A stretch of DNA of 64,000 bases, from the NCBI GenBank assembly GCA_963773005.1, contig CAVYZR010000006.1:588805-652804 (forward strand), read 5' to 3'. The translations under genes were made by a program, and so were the position numbers. Every line of letters begins with the position of its first letter. Within the stretch, counting starts at the first letter, position 1. This DNA is from an uncultured Acidobacteriota bacterium (GTDB lineage: Bacteria > Acidobacteriota > Vicinamibacteria > Vicinamibacterales > 2-12-FULL-66-21). Positions 3,463 to 62,535 of the stretch are shown here, piece after piece. Under the pieces are notes generated by a model. The model worked only from the letters and a program-made list of their open reading frames with translations. It searched no databases and had not been told where the DNA came from.

Positions 3463-3667
3463 TCAATCGTACTCTGGAGCCTCGACCGTGCCATACGGGC
3501 GCCCGCCCAGCAGCACGAGGTTCGTCGGCACGCGGAGCGCTGTACACGCCGGCCGGCAGGGTGCCCTTCCAGCCAGGACCGACGATCGCGAAGTGGCCAC
3601 CTTTGCTACCAACCGTGCGCGAGCCTGGCGCGTGCGACGCGTTGTTCCAAGCGTCTACGGTGGCCTG
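3463..3667 (-). pseudogene. DUF1254-like gene remnant (frame-broken fragment)
   Basis: Minus-strand translation gives GSKGGHFAIVGPGWKGTLPAGVYSAP and, after a frame change, PTNLVLLGGRPYGTVEAPEYD. This resembles the GPGWKG..P.G..sPTn core of DUF1254-type proteins. There is no start codon and no intact frame. Confidence 0.35.
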
Positions 3668-4136: not shown

Positions 4137-6479
4137 ATGGTTCGGATCGCTCGAATTCTCACATCTCTCCCGCTCCGCGTGGCTGGGTTCGTGATTCTGG
4201 CCGGCTCGGTCGCCTCGGCGCAGCCGCTGCTCACAGGCCGCGTGCGGGACGAGACCGGTGCGGCATTGCCGGGCGTACTCGTTGAACTCCGGTCGGGCAA
4301 TACCGCGGTCGGCCAGACGAATACGAACGATCGCGGCGAGTATCGGTTCGACGCCGCCCGTTCTGGACGGTTCGAACTCTCGTTCACGCTCGTGAACTTC
4401 GCGACGGTCCGGCGCCCGGTCACGATCGGCCCTGACGCACAGACGGTGGACGCGATTCTCTATCTCGTCCTCAGCGCAGACGTCACGGTGACTGGCAAGT
4501 CGACATTCACGAACCTCGCCGACGTACCCTCGCCGGAACAGGATCTGGTCGGGATCGCCCAATCCTCTAGTCAGGGCGCGGTCACCGCGCGGCAGCTCGA
4601 CACGCGCCCGATCATGCGGCCCGGCGAAGTCCTCGAAACCGTTCCGGGCGTCGTCATCAGCCAGCACAGCGGCGAGGGCAAGGCCAACCAATACTTTTTG
4701 CGCGGCTTCAACCTCGATCACGGCACTGACTTCGCAACGACGGTCGCGGGCATGCCGGTGAACATGCCGACGCACGGTCACGGCCACGGCTACTCCGATC
4801 TCAACTTCCTGATCCCGGAGCTCGCGAGCGGCGTTCAATTCTCAAAGGGCCCGTACTTCGCCGAGCACGGCGACTTTGCGACCGCTGGCACCGCCAACAT
4901 CAACTATACGAATACCCTCGCGCGTCCGATCGTTCGCGTCGGCGGCGGCAACGACGCCTTCGGACGCATGCTGCTCGCAGCAGCGCCGACTGTCGGCAGT
5001 GGCACACTCCTCGCCGCACTCGAGCTCGAGCACAGCGACGGCCCTTGGGAACAACCGGACGATCTGCGTAAGTTCAACGGGTTGATTCGCTATACGCGAG
5101 GCGATGGACGCAACGGCCTGTCGGCGACGCTCATGGGTTATCGCGGAACGTGGAACTCGACCGATCAGATCCCGACGCGCGCGGTGGACGACGGTCGCAT
5201 CGGCCGATTCGGCCTGGTCGATCCGACCGATGGTGGAAAGTCGTCGCGCTACAGCGCGTCGATCGAGTGGCAGCGCAGCAGCGGGAACGCCAGCACCACG
5301 CTCAGCGCCTACGGCCTCAAATACGACCTCGACCTGTTCTCGAACTTCACCTATTTCCTCGACGACCCCGAGAACGGCGATCAGTTCCAGCAGACCGATC
5401 ACCGGTTCGTGAGCGGGGCGCGCCTCACCCACCGACGCATCGGCCGGTGGCTGGATCGCCCGACGCAGAATACCGTCGGCGTCCAATTCAGGAACGACAA
5501 CATCGACGACATCGGCCTCTATCACACGCGCGAGCGTGAGCGGCTCGAGACGATCCGTCAGGATTCGGTGATCCAGACCAGTGCGGGTGCTTTCGCTCAG
5601 AACGAGACCGAGTGGACGCCGTGGCTGCGGACGCTCGCCGGCGTGCGCGTCGACGGGTATCGCTTCGATGTCACCGCCGGCATCACCGAGAACGGCGGCA
5701 CCGACTACGCAGAACTCGTCAGCCCGAAAGGCGGCGCGGTCTTTGGACCGTTCGCAAAGACCGAGGTCTACGTCAACGCCGGCCTCGGCTTTCACAGCAA
5801 CGACGCGCGCGGAGCGACCATCACCGTCGATCCGGTGACCGGCGAACCGGCCAGCCGCGTGACGCCGCTCGCGCGAGCGACTGGGGCGGAAATCGGCATC
5901 AGAACTGTACGCATCCCCAGGATGCAGATGACCGTCACGGCGTGGACTCTCGGGCTCGATTCCGAGCTCGTGTTCGTGGGCGACGCTGGAACAACAGCCC
6001 CCGGCCGCCCGAGCCGCCGCCAGGGGATCGAGTGGACGACGTACTACACGCCAAGGCCGTGGCTGATCTTCGACGCCGACCTCGCGCTCTCCAAGGGGCG
6101 GTTCACCGACGCCGATCCGGCAGGAGACCACATCCCCGGCGCCGTCGCCACGGTCGTGTCGGCCGGCGCAACCGTGGACAGCGTGCACAATGTGTTCGGC
6201 AGCGTCCGCTGGCGATACTTCGGCCCGCGCGCGCTCGTCGAGGACGACACCATCCGCTCGAAGGCGACGAGCCTCGTCAACCTCACCGCCGGATTCAAGT
6301 TCACGCCTTCACTGCGCGTCGCGCTCGAGGTGTTCAACCTCTTCAACGCAGCCGACAGCGACATCGACTATTTCTACCGGTCGCGTCTCCCAGGCGAGCC
6401 TGCCGGCGGTATCGACGATTTCCACATTCACCCTGCTGCGCCGCGGAGTGCACGGATCAACTTGATATTTGGATTCTGA
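4137..6479 (+). CDS. TonB-dependent receptor with N-terminal CarboxypepD_reg-like domain
   Basis: Signal peptide MVRIARILTSLPL...ASAQ (the ORF track starts at 4101). GRVRDETGAALPGVLVELRS module. Plug-like region VTARQLDTRPIMRPGEVLETVPGV. Long beta-barrel ending in the aromatic terminus INLIFGF. Confidence 0.85.
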   Translation: MVRIARILTSLPLRVAGFVILAGSVASAQPLLTGRVRDETGAALPGVLVELRSGNTAVGQTNTNDRGEYRFDAARSGRFELSFTLVNFATVRRPVTIGPDAQTVDAILYLVLSADVTVTGKSTFTNLADVPSPEQDLVGIAQSSSQGAVTARQLDTRPIMRPGEVLETVPGVVISQHSGEGKANQYFLRGFNLDHGTDFATTVAGMPVNMPTHGHGHGYSDLNFLIPELASGVQFSKGPYFAEHGDFATAGTANINYTNTLARPIVRVGGGNDAFGRMLLAAAPTVGSGTLLAALELEHSDGPWEQPDDLRKFNGLIRYTRGDGRNGLSATLMGYRGTWNSTDQIPTRAVDDGRIGRFGLVDPTDGGKSSRYSASIEWQRSSGNASTTLSAYGLKYDLDLFSNFTYFLDDPENGDQFQQTDHRFVSGARLTHRRIGRWLDRPTQNTVGVQFRNDNIDDIGLYHTRERERLETIRQDSVIQTSAGAFAQNETEWTPWLRTLAGVRVDGYRFDVTAGITENGGTDYAELVSPKGGAVFGPFAKTEVYVNAGLGFHSNDARGATITVDPVTGEPASRVTPLARATGAEIGIRTVRIPRMQMTVTAWTLGLDSELVFVGDAGTTAPGRPSRRQGIEWTTYYTPRPWLIFDADLALSKGRFTDADPAGDHIPGAVATVVSAGATVDSVHNVFGSVRWRYFGPRALVEDDTIRSKATSLVNLTAGFKFTPSLRVALEVFNLFNAADSDIDYFYRSRLPGEPAGGIDDFHIHPAAPRSARINLIFGF

Positions 6480-6480
6480 C

Positions 6481-6813
6481 GACGACTGACGACACACGAC
6501 AGTCGGGAGTCGGGGGTCGGAAGTCGGCAATCACAGTCGGCAGTCTGAGTCGGCAGTTCCAGTCTCATCCGGGGGACTTCGTCCCCCGGACCCCCTTACA
6601 CGCTCGCTCGCGGGGACCCCGACGCCCCGCTCCGCTCGCGTGGCTCACTCGCTACGCTCGTGCGCGCCACTAATGAGATGGCTTCTAGTCGCATCGCCTC
6701 CCCGCGCCCTGAAGGCGCTCGATACTGACTGAGACTGCCGACTCGGACTATCGACTCAGACTGTCGACGGTGACTCTCGACTCTCGACTCCCGATTCCCG
6801 ACTGCCGACTGTC
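6481..6813. repeat. composite intergenic element: GTCGGNN heptamer arms flanking an R1 core
   Basis: Left arm 6481-6565 is (GTCGGNN)n. Right arm 6721-6813 is the reverse-complement word (NNCCGAC)n. The R1 element (6569-6686) lies between the arms. Confidence 0.8.
6569..6686 (+). repeat. R1 element copy 1 (~118 nt GC-rich repeat)
   Basis: CCGGGGGACTTCGTCCCCCGG hairpin followed by ACCCCCTTACACGCTCGCTCGCGGGGACCCCGACGCCCCGCTCCGCTCGCGTGGCTC... Positions 6569-6646 are identical to 53026-53103. Confidence 0.85.
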
Positions 6814-6920
6814 TGTCCCTGTCTAGTCCCCAATCCATTCCCATCTCCCTCCCGTAGTACGAGTCGAACGCGCGGTGCGCGCCTCATCACAGGCCGGAAG
6901 AAATGAAAGGAAGGATTCTC

Positions 6921-8707
<1,787 letters not shown>

Positions 8708-8801
8708 TACTCGCGGCTCGCATCTCGCGATAAGGGGTCGGAGAGAGCAACGGCGAATTGCGAGCTGCGAGCCGCGATTTCACTTCAGAGAAGGACAGTC
8801 C

Positions 8802-35195: not shown

Positions 35196-35392
35196 TCAGT
35201 CGACTGTCGGGAGTCGGAAGTCGTCAGTCACAGTCGTCAATCTGAGTCGTCAGTCCCGAGTCGTCAGTCCCAGTCAGTCCGAGTCGGCAATCGAGTGTCG
35301 ACTGTCAACTCGCCCTGTCGACTGCCGACTCGGACCGTCGACTCAGACTGCCGACTGCGACTCCCGACTAACGATTCCCGACTACCGACTAT
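35196..35392. repeat. GTCGGNN/GTCGTCA heptamer-armed long hairpin
   Basis: The left half is rich in GAGTCGG/GTCGTCA words and the right half in CCGACT/CGACTC words. It spans from 1 nt after the nadA start to the stop of the mqn gene. Confidence 0.8.
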
Positions 35393-37099: not shown

Positions 37100-37300
37100 G
37101 GGCACAACTGACGTAGGAGCCGCGCCCAGTCGACGCGGCTCTGCCCGGCGAGCACGGGAAGTGGGTGCGAATCCCACGCGGTGCCGCCACTGTAAGCGGG
37201 GAGCGTCGTTTCCCTGTGGGGTCTGACCCCTACGCCACTGTGCTTTAGGGCATGGGAAGGCGAGGAAACGGCGCGTCGATCCGCAAGCCAGGATACCTGG
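37100..37300 (+). promoter_or_regulatory. cobalamin (B12) riboswitch
   Basis: GGGAAGTGGGTGCGAATCCCACGCGGTGCCGCCACTGTAA core, a second GCCACTGTGC...GGGAAGGCG (B12-box-like), and CAAGCCAGGATACCTGGCG. It lies directly upstream of a TonB receptor/ABC uptake operon. Boundaries are approximate. Confidence 0.8.
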
Positions 37301-37352: not shown

Positions 37353-39608
37353 GTGCATAATCACGGTCCGATCCTCGCTCTCCTGCTGACGTTCATCTTT
37401 GCGGCTAGACCGTGCCTTGCGGGGCCGGTCAGCGGTCAGGTCGTCGATCCTGACGGCCGCGGCGTTCCCGGCGCGGTCGTGCTGGTAACGGACGGCACGT
37501 CGGTGATCGCCCGCACGATGACGGTCTCGTCGGGACAATTCACGCTCAACGCCCCGGACAGTGGCGACTACGAAATTCGCATCGCGCTCGACGGGTTCCG
37601 AGCCAAGCCGATCCGAATCGCTGGCGCCGGCGCGGCCAGGGATCTTGGAACGATCGCGCTCGAGATCAGCGCCGTATCTGAATCGGTCGTCGTCTCGGCG
37701 GCGCAAGTTGAAATTCCGCAATCGTCGGCCGCCTCGAGCGTGACGATCATCACCCGCGACGACCTCGAGAAGCATCAAGTCGAGAGCGTCGCCGACGCCC
37801 TGCGGGCCGTGCCGGGACTGTCGGTGATCACCAACGGCGGCCGCGGCGCGGTGACGAGCGTGTTCCCGCGCGGCGGCGAATCGGACTATTCGCTCGTGAT
37901 CGTCGACGGCGTGCAGGCGAATGCGTTCGGCGGGGGCTACGATTTCGCGCATCTCCCAGTCGCGAACATCGAGCGGATCGAAGTCGTTCGTGGACCGCAG
38001 AGCGCGCTCTTTGGATCGAACGCGATCGGCTCGGTGATCCGCGTCGTCACCCGGCGGGGCGGCCAGCCTGACGCGTCCGCCTCGATCGAAGGCGGCGGCT
38101 ACGATACGTTCCGCGCGACCGCCGCCACCTCGGGCGCCGTCGGACCGTGGCACTGGGGCGCGGCGACCGAACGGTTGACCACGGCGAATTTCAACGGCTC
38201 GCGCACCGCGACCGGTGCCATCGTCGAGAATGACGACTACGAGCGGAGCTTCGCGGATCTGGCCGGCGGGTGGCGCAACAGCCAGGGCGCGGGGATTCAG
38301 GGAAGCCTGCGCTACGCCACCGACGAGCGCGGTGCTCCGGGGCCGTTCGGCGCGGACCCTGGCGGGACCTACGGCGGGATTGACCTCGTCGCGCGCGGCG
38401 TCAACGATCGCTGGCTGATGTCGATTGCTGGCGCCGCGACGGCGGGTCGCGCCCGAATCAGCGGCGAAGCAACGCACTCGCGGCTCGGCAGCGAGTTTGC
38501 GAGCCAGTTCGGCGATTCCGAGTCGTATACCCGGCGGACGACCGCGCGCTTTCTGGTAGATACGACCTTCGCGCGGGGCCTCGAAGCGTCGGCAGGCGCC
38601 GAACTGCTAGGTGAAAGCGCCGGCGGCACCTTTATCACTGCCACAGGCAATCAGCTCGTGCCCGTTGAGCGCGGTATCGCCGGGGTCTTCGGCGAGGTGC
38701 GGTGGAACCGAGCCGATCGACTTTTTCTGGCGGCAGGCCTCCGCGTCGACCGCATTACGCGTCAAGCTCTCGCCGGAGACGCCGACGCGTTCGCTCCACG
38801 GCCGCCGTTCGACAGCGACACGGTCGTCTCGGCAAATCCCAAGGTCGCGGCGGCGTGGGTCCTTGGCGCGACCGACGGCAACTTCACCAAGCTTCGGGGA
38901 ACAGCGGGCACCGGCATCCGCCCCCCCGACGCTTTTGAGCTCGCTTTCACCGACAACCCGTCGCTCGAGCCGGAGCGCAGCCGCAGCTTCGACGCAGGCG
39001 TCGAACAGGCGCTCTTCGGCGGGCGTGGCCTCGTCGAGGGCACCTTCTTCTTCAATAACTACGACGACCTGATTGTCGCGACGGGATCGTTCAGCGGCTC
39101 GAGCCAGTTTCGGACCGACAACATCTCGAATGCGCGCGCACAGGGCGTCGAAATTGCCGGCACGGTGCGGATGCCGCTGAATGCGCTCGGCGGCGGAAGC
39201 CTTCAGGTCCGCGTCGGCTACACGCGTCTCTCGACCGAAATCCTCGCCGTCGATCAGAGCGGGCTGGCCCCGGCCCCGTATGCAGTCGGTGACCGGTTGC
39301 TGCGGCGGCCCGATCACATGTTCTCAGCCGACGTGCTGCTCTCTGCCGGACCGCTCTCGGCGTTCCTCGACGGCGGGGCCCGCAGCACAGTCAGCGACGT
39401 CGACCCGAGCTTCGGCACGTTCGGCGGCGTCTACGAGGGACCCGGATACAGTGTTTGGAACGCCGGCGCATCGTGGGCGTTCTGGAACCGGCTGCAGATC
39501 TTCGGGCGCGTCACCAACCTCTTCAATCGCGACTACGAGGAAGCGCTGGGTTACCCTGCGCTCAGACGTGCCGGGATGGTGGGAGTGAGGGTTGCTGCGA
39601 GCCGCTGA
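37353..39608 (+). CDS. TonB-dependent receptor (BtuB-like by context) with CarboxypepD_reg domain
   Basis: GTG at 37353 follows AAGGAG. Signal peptide. GQVVDPDGRGVPGAVVLV module, plug (VTIITRDDLEKHQVESVADALRAVPGL) and barrel. Confidence 0.85.
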   Translation: MHNHGPILALLLTFIFAARPCLAGPVSGQVVDPDGRGVPGAVVLVTDGTSVIARTMTVSSGQFTLNAPDSGDYEIRIALDGFRAKPIRIAGAGAARDLGTIALEISAVSESVVVSAAQVEIPQSSAASSVTIITRDDLEKHQVESVADALRAVPGLSVITNGGRGAVTSVFPRGGESDYSLVIVDGVQANAFGGGYDFAHLPVANIERIEVVRGPQSALFGSNAIGSVIRVVTRRGGQPDASASIEGGGYDTFRATAATSGAVGPWHWGAATERLTTANFNGSRTATGAIVENDDYERSFADLAGGWRNSQGAGIQGSLRYATDERGAPGPFGADPGGTYGGIDLVARGVNDRWLMSIAGAATAGRARISGEATHSRLGSEFASQFGDSESYTRRTTARFLVDTTFARGLEASAGAELLGESAGGTFITATGNQLVPVERGIAGVFGEVRWNRADRLFLAAGLRVDRITRQALAGDADAFAPRPPFDSDTVVSANPKVAAAWVLGATDGNFTKLRGTAGTGIRPPDAFELAFTDNPSLEPERSRSFDAGVEQALFGGRGLVEGTFFFNNYDDLIVATGSFSGSSQFRTDNISNARAQGVEIAGTVRMPLNALGGGSLQVRVGYTRLSTEILAVDQSGLAPAPYAVGDRLLRRPDHMFSADVLLSAGPLSAFLDGGARSTVSDVDPSFGTFGGVYEGPGYSVWNAGASWAFWNRLQIFGRVTNLFNRDYEEALGYPALRRAGMVGVRVAASR

Positions 39609-40476
39609 CATCACATTCTCGTATCGACAGCAGGCGCGGCCGGTGCTGCGCGGCGCCTCGCTGGACGTGCCAGCCGATGGCGTTGTTGGAATCCTCGGGC
39701 CGAACGGCTCGGGAAAAACCACGCTCCTGCGAGTGCTGGCGGGCACGCTTCGGCCCTCGAGCGGACGCGTGACGCTCGACGGCGTCGATCTCGCTCGATT
39801 GTCGCGTTCGATGATGGCGCGGCGAATGGCCGTCGTGCCGCAGGAAACGCACCTCGCGTTCGACTTCACGGTGCTCGAGGTGGTCCTGATGGGGCGCTAC
39901 CCCCACCTCGGGACGTTCGAAGTCGAGGGCCCGCGCGACCTCGCTCTCGCGCGCCGGGCCCTCGAGGCCACCGGCACCGGGGCGTTCGAGAATCGACTCT
40001 TTGCCACGCTGAGCGGCGGCGAGAAGCAGCGCGTCATCATCGCCGCCGCGCTGGCGCAGATTTCGAGCGAAAACCGGGGTCAGGCCGTGAATCGTGAATT
40101 CGCTGAATCCGGCCGAAAAGCCATGATTCATGATTCACGGCCTGACCCCGGTATTTTGCTGCTCGACGAGCCGACGGCGGCGCTCGATCTCGCCTACCAA
40201 CTCGAAGTCGCCTCGCTCCTTCGCGATCTCCAGCGACGCGCGCCCATCGCCATCGTCATCTCGACGCACGACCTCAACTTCGCCGCGGGGCTCTGCAAAA
40301 CGCTCGTGTTGCTCAAAGATGGGCGGATCCTGGCTTCAGGCGCGACCGGCGACGTCCTGACCGTCGGGAATATCCGGGCGCTCTACGGCATCGAGGCGGA
40401 TGTCCAGTCGCATGCGGGCGCCGGCCATCTCGTGGTCGTACCGGTCGGCCGGAGCGCGCGTGGGACGGCCTCGTGA
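39592..40476 (+). CDS. ABC transporter ATP-binding protein (FecE/BtuD family) with internal 28-aa insertion
   Basis: Walker A GPNGSGKTT, signature LSGGEKQR, Walker B ILLLDEP. ISSENRGQAVNREFAESGRKAMIHDSRP is inserted between the signature and Walker B motifs. Confidence 0.85.
   Translation: MLRAADITFSYRQQARPVLRGASLDVPADGVVGILGPNGSGKTTLLRVLAGTLRPSSGRVTLDGVDLARLSRSMMARRMAVVPQETHLAFDFTVLEVVLMGRYPHLGTFEVEGPRDLALARRALEATGTGAFENRLFATLSGGEKQRVIIAAALAQISSENRGQAVNREFAESGRKAMIHDSRPDPGILLLDEPTAALDLAYQLEVASLLRDLQRRAPIAIVISTHDLNFAAGLCKTLVLLKDGRILASGATGDVLTVGNIRALYGIEADVQSHAGAGHLVVVPVGRSARGTAS
40073..40152. repeat. palindromic element inside the ABC ATPase coding sequence
   Basis: ACCGGGGTCAGGCCGTGAATC (40073-40093) is the exact reverse complement of GATTCACGGCCTGACCCCGGT (40132-40152). 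The arms contain GTGAATC/GATTCAC heptamer words. Confidence 0.85.
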
Positions 40477-41474
40477 CGATCCGCCGGCGAATCGCCGTGA
40501 CGACAACCGGCTTCGGCCTGGTGGCGGTGGCGGCGGTCACGCTGGCGCCACTCGTCGGGTCGACCGCGATCAATCTGCGGCGCGCGTTCGACTGGTCGGT
40601 GCCATTTGCCGACAACGTCGACGCGCAGATCTTTTTCGTCGCCCGGTTACCGCGCACGCTCGCGGGCGCACTGGTCGGCGCTGCCCTGGCGGCCGCAGGC
40701 GTCGTCTTTCAAGGGCTTCTCCGCAATCCGCTCGCCACGCCGTTCACACTCGGCGTGTCCTCTGGCGCGGCGCTTGGCGCGATGCTGGCCATTACGTTCA
40801 ACTGGACGCTGGGCGTGGGCGGGATCTCCGCGGTATCGGTCGCCGGCTTCGTTGGGGCCGCATGCGCCGTCACGATTGTCTATGCGCTCGCACGCGCCCA
40901 CCGGCGCGGCCTCTCGACCGACGTCCTGCTGCTCGCCGGCGTGACGCTCAACGCGTTTTTCTCGGCACTGATCCTCTGCGTTCAGTACTTCGCCGATTTT
41001 GCCGACGCCTACCGTACCCTGCGCTGGTTGATGGGAGACCTCGACGTCAGCAGCTATCAGCCAATCGTGACCTCACTTCCGCTCTTGCTCGCTGCCTTCG
41101 CGGTGTTTGCGTGGCTGGCGCGCCCGCTGAACCTGCTCAGCCTCGGCGCTGACAGCGCCGAAACGCGAGGTATCGACGTCACGAGCGCCCAGAGACGCGC
41201 CTTCTTCAGTGCGTCGCTCGCCACCGGCGCGGCCGTTTCGGTCGGCGGACCGGTCGGCTTCATCGGCATCATCGTTCCGCACCTCGTGCGGTTGATCGTC
41301 GGCTCGGATCACCGCCTGGTGCTCCCCGCCTCGGCGCTCTTTGGCGCGGCGTTTCTCGTCGGCTGCGACGTCCTCGCCCGGACGCTGATCGCGCCGGTCG
41401 AGATCCCAGTTGGCGTGATCACGGCGCTCATCGGGGGGCCGTTCTTTCTCTGGTTGCTGGTGAGGAAAGCGTAG
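40473..41474 (+). CDS. FecCD-family ABC permease (BtuC-like)
   Basis: Multi-TM protein with RLPRTLAGALVGAALAAAG and GPVGFIGIIVPHLVRL, typical of the family. The start overlaps the upstream stop. Confidence 0.9.
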   Translation: MTIRRRIAVTTTGFGLVAVAAVTLAPLVGSTAINLRRAFDWSVPFADNVDAQIFFVARLPRTLAGALVGAALAAAGVVFQGLLRNPLATPFTLGVSSGAALGAMLAITFNWTLGVGGISAVSVAGFVGAACAVTIVYALARAHRRGLSTDVLLLAGVTLNAFFSALILCVQYFADFADAYRTLRWLMGDLDVSSYQPIVTSLPLLLAAFAVFAWLARPLNLLSLGADSAETRGIDVTSAQRRAFFSASLATGAAVSVGGPVGFIGIIVPHLVRLIVGSDHRLVLPASALFGAAFLVGCDVLARTLIAPVEIPVGVITALIGGPFFLWLLVRKA

Positions 41475-42475
41475 TGATCATAATCAAGGCCGCTCGCACT
41501 CAAAAGCCTTCACCGCCGAGAACGCCGAGAACGCCGAGCCAAATTGGTTTTCTCTGCGCGCTCCGCGTTATCTGCGGTGAGAAGCTTTTGGACACCTTCG
41601 TCATCGTAGCCATCGTGTCATCGTGCCTCATCGTGTCAACGCCGTGGGCACGTGGCGGAGTGACGACACACGCCGCCGCGCAGCCCGCCCCAACTCGCAT
41701 CATCTCGCTCATCCCGGCGGTCAGCGAGATGCTCTTCGCGATCGGCGCAGGCCCTCGAGTCGTCGCCGTCAGCAGCTTTGACGACTATCCGCCAGACGTG
41801 CTCACGCTTCCGCGTGTTGGCGCGCTCGTCGATCCGGATCTCGAGCGCATCCTGTCGCTTCGACCCGATCTCGTCATCGTCTATGAAAGTCAGATCGACC
41901 TCCGGCGTCAGCTCGACCGCGCGACCATTCCCGCGTTCGTTTACAAGCACGCCGGGCTTGCCGATGTCACCACGACGATCCGGCAACTGGGCGAGCGGGT
42001 CGGACAGCAAGAAGGCGCGGCGGCGGTGATCCGGCTGATCGAAGAGAAACTCCGCGATATCAAGAGGCGCGTCTCCGGGCGACCCAGACCGCGAACGCTG
42101 CTCGTCTTCGGCCGGGATGCGCTCGCCCTCAGAGGCGTCTATGCAAGTGGCGGCACCGGCTTCCTTCACGACATGCTCGACGCGGCCGGTGGCGACAACG
42201 TGTTCGCAGACGTGCCGCAGCAGTCCGTTCAGGCGACCTCGGAGCTCGTCCTCGCGCGCCGGCCTGAGGCCATCCTCGAGTTGCGGGCAGGCGCCATGTC
42301 ACCAGCTGAACAGCGCCAGGAAATCGCGGTATGGCAGGCGCTCCCCTCGGTGCCGGCCGTCCGCGCCGGCCGCATCGCGATCATCACGGATCCTCGCACC
42401 GTCGTCCCTGGACCGCGCGTAGCGGAAGGCACCGAGCTCATCGCGCGCGCGCTGCACCCGGAGGCGTTCAAGTGA
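41474..42475 (+). CDS. periplasmic cobalamin/siderophore-type substrate-binding protein (BtuF-like)
   Basis: RIISLIPAVSEMLFAIGAG...RPDLVIVY... Start uncertain: either GTG 41474 or TTG 41588, the latter giving a cleaner signal peptide (DTFVIVAIVSSCLIV). Confidence 0.8.
   Translation: MIIIKAARTQKPSPPRTPRTPSQIGFLCALRVICGEKLLDTFVIVAIVSSCLIVSTPWARGGVTTHAAAQPAPTRIISLIPAVSEMLFAIGAGPRVVAVSSFDDYPPDVLTLPRVGALVDPDLERILSLRPDLVIVYESQIDLRRQLDRATIPAFVYKHAGLADVTTTIRQLGERVGQQEGAAAVIRLIEEKLRDIKRRVSGRPRPRTLLVFGRDALALRGVYASGGTGFLHDMLDAAGGDNVFADVPQQSVQATSELVLARRPEAILELRAGAMSPAEQRQEIAVWQALPSVPAVRAGRIAIITDPRTVVPGPRVAEGTELIARALHPEAFK
41501..41590. repeat. GCCGAGAAC/TTCTCTGCG nonamer-word palindromic element, copy 2
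   Basis: CAAAAGCCTTCACCGC...(GCCGAGAAC)x2...TTCTCTGCGCGCTCCGCGTTATCTGCGGTGAGAAGCTTTTG. The ends are inverted repeats. Confidence 0.7.
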
Positions 42476-44524: not shown

Positions 44525-44597
44525 GGCCACGGATCACGGCCACGGATCACGGCCACGGATCACGGCCACGGATCACACGGATTACACGGATTTGTAT
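44525..44597. repeat. 13-nt tandem repeat (GGCCACGGATCAC)x4 plus ACGGATTACACGGATT
   Basis: A direct tandem array begins immediately after the adaptor gene stop. No inverted partner was seen. Confidence 0.85.
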
Positions 44598-59410: not shown

Positions 59411-59490
59411 GGAAGCTTCCGGCTTCCAGCTTCCGGCTTTCAGCTAGATTCCAGTGTTCTTACTGGAAGCTGGAAGCGGGAAGCTGGCAG
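59411..59490. repeat. TCCRGCT/CAGCTKC-type heptamer-armed hairpin
   Basis: GGAAGCTTCCGGCTTCCAGCTTCCGGCTTTCAGCTA, 17-nt loop, then TGGAAGCTGGAAGCGGGAAGCTGGCAGC. It fills the sufA-sufB spacer exactly. Confidence 0.85.
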
Positions 59491-62446: not shown

Positions 62447-62535
62447 GGCTCAGGGCTTAGGGCTCAAGGCTCAGGCAAAAACCTTCGACCATTTACTCGA
62501 CGATCTTGCTAGCCTTGAGCCCTGAGCCCTGAGCC
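62447..62535. repeat. GGCTCAG heptamer-armed hairpin (homolog of 51725-51842)
   Basis: GGCTCAGGGCTTAGGGCTCAAGGCTCAGG. Loop CAAAAACCTTCGACCATTTACTCGACGATCTTGC. Right arm TAGCCTTGAGCCCTGAGCCCTGAGCC. It fills a convergent spacer from stop to stop. Confidence 0.9.

Follow-up and report, generated by a model that had tools for sequence, protein, structure and literature searches.

A hairpin repeat, probably a mobile element of the REPIN type, lies in frame inside a BtuD-like ATPase gene of an uncultured Vicinamibacterales bacterium

What can be learned from a palindrome that resides inside the gene of an apparently intact enzyme? Within the window analysed here, a stretch of 64,000 nucleotides from an uncultured acidobacterium of the order Vicinamibacterales (contig CAVYZR010000006.1), the btuD-like ATPase gene of a B12-type operon carries a stable hairpin, in frame, between two of its catalytic motifs. 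In this respect the original prediction, made from the letters of the window alone, holds: the reading frame of the ATPase is intact, a cobalamin riboswitch stands at the head of the operon, and btuB-, btuD-, btuC- and btuF-like genes follow (Table 1). To judge from this gene order and the riboswitch, the operon is one for B12-type uptake. As we argue below, the hairpin is in all likelihood a non-autonomous mobile repeat of the REPIN type (a hairpin-forming doublet of repetitive extragenic palindromes, REPs), which belongs to a family associated with a REP-associated tyrosine transposase (RAYT) and was inserted in frame into the btuD-like gene.

The host gene is an open reading frame (ORF) of 294 codons, whose translation includes LSGGEKQRVIIAAALAQISSENRGQAVNREFAESGRKAMIHDSRPDPGILLLDEP and has all motifs of its class: Walker A (GPNGSGKT), the signature (LSGGEKQR), Walker B (ILLLDEP) and the H-loop (STHDLN). 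Models of heme, corrinoid and siderophore ABC ATPases match it at 1e-70 to 1e-45, the heme/corrinoid models of NCBIfam at 1e-70 to 1e-62, and the profile matches always come in two stretches, with the break at the insert, which occupies residues 163-186 between LSGGEKQR and ILLLDEP. An AlphaFold model based on 64 homologues reaches a mean pLDDT of 85.9, and in Foldseek it resembles HmuV (4G1U), BhuV (5B58), BtuD (4FI3) and FhuC (7LB8) with a target-normalised TM-score of about 0.89. The motifs, the fold and an operon with a FecCD permease and a class III binding protein identify the protein as the ATPase of a type II ABC importer. Its start overlaps the stop of the btuB-like gene by 17 nt. The public call of the ATPase (P0001, 277 aa) begins 17 codons too late (window 39592-39642): the sequence LLRAADITFSY, upstream of the P0001 start, is kept in relatives, and translation likely starts at a TTG at 39592.

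A surface loop, for which the original prediction had proposed to look, is in keeping with the structure model, in which AlphaFold places the insert in a loop of low confidence: pLDDT averages 51 for residues 161-170 and 56 for residues 171-180, a stretch preceded by the signature helix (142-157) and followed by the Walker B strand (187-192). Outside this loop, dN/dS between insert-bearing genes is 0.13-0.23, which places the gene under purifying selection. Because of these values, and because all catalytic motifs are intact, the ATPase with its insert can be judged to be still functional, as far as sequence can tell.

At the level of DNA, two 21-mers at 40073-40093 (ACCGGGGTCAGGCCGTGAATC) and 40132-40152 are perfect reverse complements of each other, just as had been predicted. 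None of 100 shuffled windows contained such a match (0/100), and the 64-kb window holds no further match to the 21-mer with up to three mismatches. A repeat finder extends the inverted repeat to 30 nt on each side, with 93% complementarity (40070-40099 and 40126-40155). Folded as RNA, the segment 40055-40165 has a predicted minimum free energy of -65.9 kcal/mol, compared with -31.9 +/- 3.4 kcal/mol for its shuffles (z = -9.9), and the G+C content falls from about 0.68 to 0.53 across the hairpin region. Rfam assigns the hairpin to no known RNA family, a match to the mir-485 hairpin remaining below threshold (23.8 bits versus 70). Each arm contains just two tandem GTGAATC heptamers, within a conserved arm of 23 nt. 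The left arm is translated as (R)GQAVNRE, in its sole stop-free frame, and the right arm as IHDSRPDP; as a whole, the insert adds 24 residues to the ATPase (GQAVNREFAESGRKAMIHDSRPDP), and EFAESGR and AMIHDSRPDPGILLLDEPTAALDLAYQLEVASLLR are the tryptic peptides that span it.

Table 1. Coordinates of the element, its host gene and the surrounding operon in the 64,000-nt window
Feature	Position	Strand	Basis or remark
Cobalamin riboswitch, heads the operon	37156..37297	+	Rfam RF00174, 77.6 bits
TonB-dependent receptor, BtuB-like, upstream operon gene	37353..39608	+	ORF and profile match
Host gene, type II ABC-importer ATPase (BtuD/HmuV-like), intact	39592..40476	+	Motifs, profile matches, fold
Whole element by family consensus, GGGGTCAGG...CCTGACCCC, 74 nt	40076..40149	.	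Boundaries from 102 copies and allele alignment (empty L001, filled L002)
Left conserved arm GGGGTCAGGCCGTGAATCGTGAA, subfamily 1	40076..40098	+	GGGGWSAS-type start, two tandem GTGAATC heptamers
Variable centre TTCGCTGAATCCGGCCGAAAAGCCATGA, locus-specific	40099..40126	.	Near-identical in the orthologous copy of L002, unrelated in dispersed copies
Right conserved arm TTCATGATTCACGGCCTGACCCC	40127..40149	-	One C>T versus consensus at 40131 (synonymous His)
Permease, BtuC/FecCD-like, downstream operon gene	40473-41474	+	ORF and profile match
Substrate-binding protein, BtuF-like, downstream operon gene	41474-42475	+	ORF and profile match

That the hairpin is an insertion is seen from its close relatives. 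An allele without the element, for which the original prediction had suggested to look, is found on the contig that encodes P0018 (L001): its gene is 93% identical to the window gene outside the loop and lacks exactly 72 nt, or 24 codons, corresponding to positions 40077-40148. The junctions, GAAAACAG^CGGCATT in L001 versus GAAAACCG(GGGTCAGG...CCTGACCC)CGGTATT in the window with the insert in parentheses, reveal no target duplication. The native loop reads ISNENSG in L001, and the ISSENR of the window protein is likewise native loop sequence. By comparison with this empty allele, the length of the insert, previously given as 84 nt and 28 residues, is corrected to 72 nt and 24 residues; as 72 is divisible by 3 and not by 7, the argument built on a multiple of both numbers fails. 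The indel coincides with the ends of the repeat family described below. A filled allele (L002, encoding P0013) carries the same element at the same site with a near-identical centre, and the same filled allele recurs in at least eight independent protein clusters from different assemblies. Finally, the relative that is closest to the window outside the loop, L181 (dS 0.07), holds a different element in its btuD loop, of a family B rather than the family A of the window, yet one with identical ends (GGGGTCAG/CTGACCCC). A single site is thus found in filled, empty and alternative states.

These alleles bear directly on two simpler views of the segment, namely that it is an ancestral loop which is palindromic by chance, or that the insertion has disrupted the gene and left a pseudogene. 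BtuD/HmuV-type ATPases have a natively longer loop at this position than other ABC ATPases, and the 6-12 residues that the loop mostly comprises in 80 more distant metagenomic orthologues are consistent with this; for a dead gene one could invoke a related copy (L098) that is frame-shifted. However, the empty and alternative alleles in near-identical genes, the intact ORF, the complete set of motifs, the low dN/dS and the presence of the filled allele in independent clusters speak against these views, and we consider them very unlikely.

Is the hairpin a singular structure or the member of a family? Copies elsewhere, proposed as a further check, were indeed found in related genomes by a scan of one genome per species for the paired arms GTCAGGCMGTGAATC-N12-42-GATTCACKGCCTGAC. 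It yielded 98 stretches with 102 copies, almost all of them intergenic. At least 21 assemblies contributed, of which nearly all bear the label Acidobacteriota or Vicinamibacterales, and a single metagenome-assembled genome (MAG) has up to about 19 perfect-core copies. Column statistics over the 102 copies define a sharply bounded family arm of 23 nt, GG[G/T]GTCAGGC[C/A]GTGAATCGTGAA, in two subfamilies that are set apart by paired compensatory changes in both arms. Paired arms outnumber solo arms by 219 to 22, the latter representing about 9% of all arms. Between them lie centres of 3-32 nt, which are unrelated between copies and self-complementary all the same, with 6.0 paired positions of 12 versus 3.9 +/- 0.2 when partners are shuffled; in the flanks, the excess of complementarity is weak (3.7 versus 3.3 +/- 0.15 of 12). 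Two copies reside on contigs of bins with other labels, Verrucomicrobia and Gammaproteobacteria (L044, VHCY01000232.1; L059, CAWGVW010000002.1), and could stem from mis-binning or horizontal transfer.

With about 96% of its copies between genes, the family is predominantly extragenic; for nearly half of them, each of the six frames is interrupted by stops, and most of the others are located in short or upstream frames. The intragenic copies among the 102 comprise three in btuD orthologues (L029, L098 and L002, the last on the same contig as L029), to which the window copy is additional, and a fourth in a squalene/phytoene-synthase gene (L039; PF00494, 2.6e-57). The left arm has a single frame without TGA, which is the one used by all btuD copies, while the synthase copy escapes via a mutated arm. 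This copy lies in frame inside the HpnC/D-like gene (L039, 1745-1790), where GTGCAC in place of GTGAAC has removed the stop codon of that frame. Eight more dispersed copies in long stop-free frames were considered as intragenic and discarded, as a Pfam domain on both sides of the element was found in none of them (0/8); they are placed upstream of or between genes. A search for other in-frame copies in a database of 5.8 billion proteins, using a concatenated query of 48 residues, returned no candidates, which is a limitation of the index and not evidence of absence.

The dispersed copies also allow an appraisal of whether the palindrome could have been made in place, growing locally by slippage of heptamers and template-switching at hairpins, without any transposition. 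Such growth would agree with the number of heptamers in the arms, which is 2 to 3 among copies, with centres that are palindromic though unique to each copy, and with the loops of other orthologues (for example, L106, L110 and L139), which contain in-frame tandem heptamers or short repeats and no palindromes. Yet local growth cannot yield an identical 23-nt arm that both recurs at over 100 unrelated loci and flanks a transposase gene, and the indel relative to the empty allele matches the ends of the family. We therefore regard an origin in place as highly improbable.

The transposase in question is encoded in related genomes. In L081, an ORF of 293 aa has a solo arm (36-60) on one side and a full element (1052-1121) on the other. 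Its product combines a Y1_Tnp domain (PF01797, 3.7e-11) with a C-terminal helix-turn-helix (HTH), scores 80.8 bits against the NCBIfam model NF047646, 'REP-associated tyrosine transposase' (cutoff 80), and has its best solved-structure match in E. coli TnpA-REP (4ER8), to which both its HUH motif and its tyrosine align. RAYT genes flanked by family arms, always in inverted orientation, occur in L081, L037, L071, L184 and L185/L186, some of these loci having several arms per side. The association extends into the proteins themselves: 41 of 120 RAYT homologue clusters (P0121-P0240), many of which carry the JGI name RayT, end in an arm-encoded peptide (..SRFTA*, ..HDSLPDT, ..VSGSES*), versus 0 of 120 control proteins. 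In these 41 clusters the arm provides the last residues and often a TGA stop, and the DNA of L184 (2364-2386) confirms a stop from the arm.

How does this family relate to known systems? As in the REPIN and REP-RAYT systems (Nunvar, 2010; Bertels and Rainey, 2011; PMC3116915, PMC3337134), two inverted conserved units form a hairpin, both in the 102 copies and in the window; copies are numerous and scattered, lie for the most part outside genes and include some singlets; and, in related genomes only, these units border, in inverted orientation, a gene for a Y1/HUH transposase. In REPINs, every spacer is different and the hairpin is nevertheless preserved by all of them (PMC3337134), and here, too, the spacer differs from copy to copy and stays self-complementary. 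For the heptamer-word element of the original prediction, REPIN-like pair of RAYT-associated repeats is the better description. The present family departs from these systems in its host clade, uncultured Vicinamibacterales, in a RAYT with a C-terminal HTH whose ORF often ends inside an arm, and in copies that are nested in each other at one coding site. In the library searched, we found no literature linking Vicinamibacter or Vicinamibacterales to the terms REP, RAYT or REPIN.

A related precedent is provided by Di Nocera et al. (2013; PMC3733652), who described RAYT-like genes flanked by non-palindromic inverted repeats with a GGGGWSAS motif ('TIRtrons/TIRYTs'), among which those of Acidobacteria form a sharply delimited TIRYT group, as well as families of repeats that occur as dimers. 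In the features of this published description the present family agrees with them: the arm of subfamily 1 starts with GGGGTCAG, which fits GGGGWSAS, and dimers predominate; the family B and C elements of L181 share these GGGGTCAG-type ends. The same study reported intragenic GTAG/CGTC REP dimers that encode 20-30 residues, and clusters that encode 43-82 (Fig. 7 and Additional file 3 therein), which were read as neutral inserts in flexible loops and are concentrated in the replication and repair genes uvrA, uvrB, recBCD and dnaE2 of other phyla. Like the present copies, these dimers encode short peptides inside ORFs; unlike them, the element studied here resides in a transporter ATPase and recurs at one loop with filled, empty and alternative alleles. 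The notion that in-frame insertion would be unexpected for this class of elements is hence superseded, since in-frame REP dimers and acidobacterial GGGGWSAS RAYT repeats were both on record in 2013 (PMC3733652). In-frame insertion of a hairpin is a known phenomenon, and what is new is the bacterial group, the Vicinamibacterales.

The parallel originally drawn was to the Rickettsia palindromic elements (RPEs; Ogata et al., 2000, as cited in PMC10969869 and PMC3733652). It applies to the in-frame behaviour, in that a palindromic repeat sits in frame in a functional gene under selection and its peptide at a structurally tolerant position. It does not apply to kinship: the sequences are unrelated, the CGTC tag is missing, the host is acidobacterial, and the insert measures 72 nt versus approximately 100-150 for RPEs, so that the element is not one of them. 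Moreover, the present family has a RAYT, whereas RPEs are not known to have a transposase, and about 4% of its copies are intragenic versus roughly half in some RPE families. Bacterial MITEs (miniature transposable elements with inverted repeats) of the DDE type, such as Correia, Nezha and ERIC, are likewise short and non-coding, have terminal inverted repeats, form hairpins and give rise to occasional in-frame fusions; however, the junction in the window lacks a target-site duplication and the enzyme is Y1/HUH and not DDE, which places the element outside this group.

We thus favour a scenario in which one copy of a RAYT-associated REPIN-type repeat would have landed between the G and the C of ...AAC AG^C GGC ATT..., without target duplication, in the loop joining the ABC-signature helix to the Walker B strand. 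Its survival there would be due to a surface loop that tolerates changes in length, to its length of 72 nt and to the use of the sole TGA-free frame of its arms. The 24 added residues are probably disordered, and the ATPase would stay functional. Mobilisation would be effected by the RAYT through single-stranded hairpin intermediates, with insertion or excision presumably being precise and duplication-free, and with a preference for re-insertion into existing copies, resulting in nesting; the peptide encoded by the insert would be neutral.

Several observations weigh against this scenario. Within the 64-kb window, tblastn revealed no significant match to a RAYT gene, whether the query was an E. 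coli RAYT sequence or the L081 protein, and a second copy of the arm with up to three mismatches is absent as well; the link to the transposase therefore rests on related genomes. Unlike classical REPs, the arm of the btuD family is not itself palindromic, having neither an internal stem nor the GTAG/CGTC tag, and beyond its 23 nt the flanks of the 102 copies exhibit neither conservation nor a target motif or target duplication. Mobility is deduced from presence/absence polymorphism, that is, from the exact 72-nt difference between filled and empty alleles and the different element in L181. The pattern of alleles, with A in the window and L002, B in L181 and an empty site in L001, needs at least two events of loss, replacement or recombination within a dS of about 0.25, and could also be obtained via homologous recombination between strains. 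The frame of one btuD orthologue changes inside the element (L098, 4540-4640), owing either to one additional base within the left arm or to a miscalled homopolymer near CCCCACCGCCCCGGGG; this may be a real inactivation or a homopolymer error of a long-read MAG, and unless it is an assembly error, not every insertion into btuD is harmless. Lastly, between the window and L002 the arms differ at 1 of 46 positions, compared with 4 of 26 in the centre and a gene dS of 0.24. The arms are held constant by something, be it recognition by an enzyme, conversion from other copies or a role of the RNA or DNA, which hints at constraint or gene conversion beyond simple neutrality.

Might the hairpin, then, have been domesticated? 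It could be kept in btuD as a useful mRNA structure, for example as a processing site, stabiliser or translation pause that sets the BtuB:BtuCDF ratio, or as a peptide that modulates the ATPase. In line with this, the RNA hairpin is very stable, its arms are far better conserved than synonymous sites, the two C>T changes in the arms of the window keep G-U pairs on the sense strand, and some palindrome occupies the site in many lineages. However, close relatives either have no insert (L001) or one with an unrelated inner sequence (L181), the peptide varies freely in sequence and length, AlphaFold predicts no confident structure for the segment, and the conservation of the arms is explained equally well by transposase recognition or conversion from other copies. 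Domestication consequently appears unlikely to us, and a mobile, RAYT-associated repeat remains the preferred explanation.

The history of the loop is more complex than a single insertion. When the 120 closest homologues are compared, the stretch that begins with LSGGE and ends with DEP varies from 27 to 95 residues, of which about 24 correspond to fixed motifs and the signature helix and the remainder to the variable loop, and many of these loops bear palindrome-derived peptides, such as GQAVNRE...HDSRPDP, GSDLDFL...RKSRSDP and others. Several loops of the 80 distant orthologues contain other strong palindromes or in-frame tandem repeats. In L183, the loop holds the A element and an additional right arm; the btuD orthologue of L182 (3460-3693) has accommodated, in the same loop and in frame, a triple nest of the form B>A>A, with 64 extra residues and a predicted RNA fold of -178 kcal/mol. 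Outside btuD, too, family B is present, as is a third family that has these ends. Furthermore, hexamers of the termini are 6-fold enriched in the centres of dispersed copies (P = 2.5e-5), in support of the idea that these repeats nest habitually. The centre of the family B element in L181 (6445-6466, CGCCGAATCCACGGTCCGA) resembles that of the family A element in the window (40101-40116, CGCTGAATCCGGCCGA), a likeness that stands out against the otherwise unrelated centres of dispersed copies and may have been left behind by an earlier A copy or reflect shared ancestry of both alleles. L181 contains, in addition, a third type of element (3517-3581) with GGGGTCAGGC...GCCTGACCCC ends and different inner arms, located upstream of the same operon, in the interval that separates yjbQ from the btuB-like receptor gene.

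The recurrent occupancy of the loop can be due either to targeting of existing copies or to mere tolerance of the loop. More tentatively, we consider it possible, though doubtful, that the btuD loop is a true insertion hotspot, in which hairpin repeats mobilised by the RAYT home into the apex or the ends of resident copies. If so, selfish palindromes would be stacking there, up to the B>A>A nest of L182, and would be continually swapped, given that A, B and empty alleles are found among strains just 0.07-0.24 dS apart. The loop would then constitute a natural, currently active system for the study of transposon self-targeting and of how new, translated protein sequence arises within a conserved ATPase, with both processes traceable in metagenomic time series; nesting and the hotspot, if real, would also offer a handle on the target choice of RAYTs.

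Irrespective of such a hotspot, the present family extends REPIN/RAYT-type repeats to the Vicinamibacterales, an abundant and largely uncultured soil order, and its btuD copies would represent a clean case, with filled, empty and alternative alleles, of a selfish hairpin in frame inside a working enzyme. For annotation, this means that segments such as GQAVNRE...HDSRPDP and GSDLDFL...RKSRSDP in these ATPases are repeat-derived and no functional motifs, and that the RAYT ORFs of this clade often take their stop codon from a repeat arm.

Further repeats are found in other parts of the window. The GGATCAC words at 44525-44597, formerly seen as kin of the hairpin arms, are part of an unrelated sequence, a perfect tandem array of four 13-mers (GGCCACGGATCAC; 44525-44576) between genes for an RND adaptor and pump. 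As L002 has one copy of this 13-mer, the array is a repeat of variable copy number outside the hairpin family, and was rejected as a member. Other strong hairpins with arms of tandem heptamers (for example, GGCTCAG GGCTTAG GGCTCAA, or AGCTTCC GGCTTCC) are located at 6470-6830, 8711-8777, 35277-35335, 59414-59485 and 62447-62535, the first of which folds at -190 kcal/mol. They were likewise dismissed as kin of the btuD element, as their sequences differ and they have no GGGGWSAS ends; lying mostly between genes, they may represent further repeat families of this genome.

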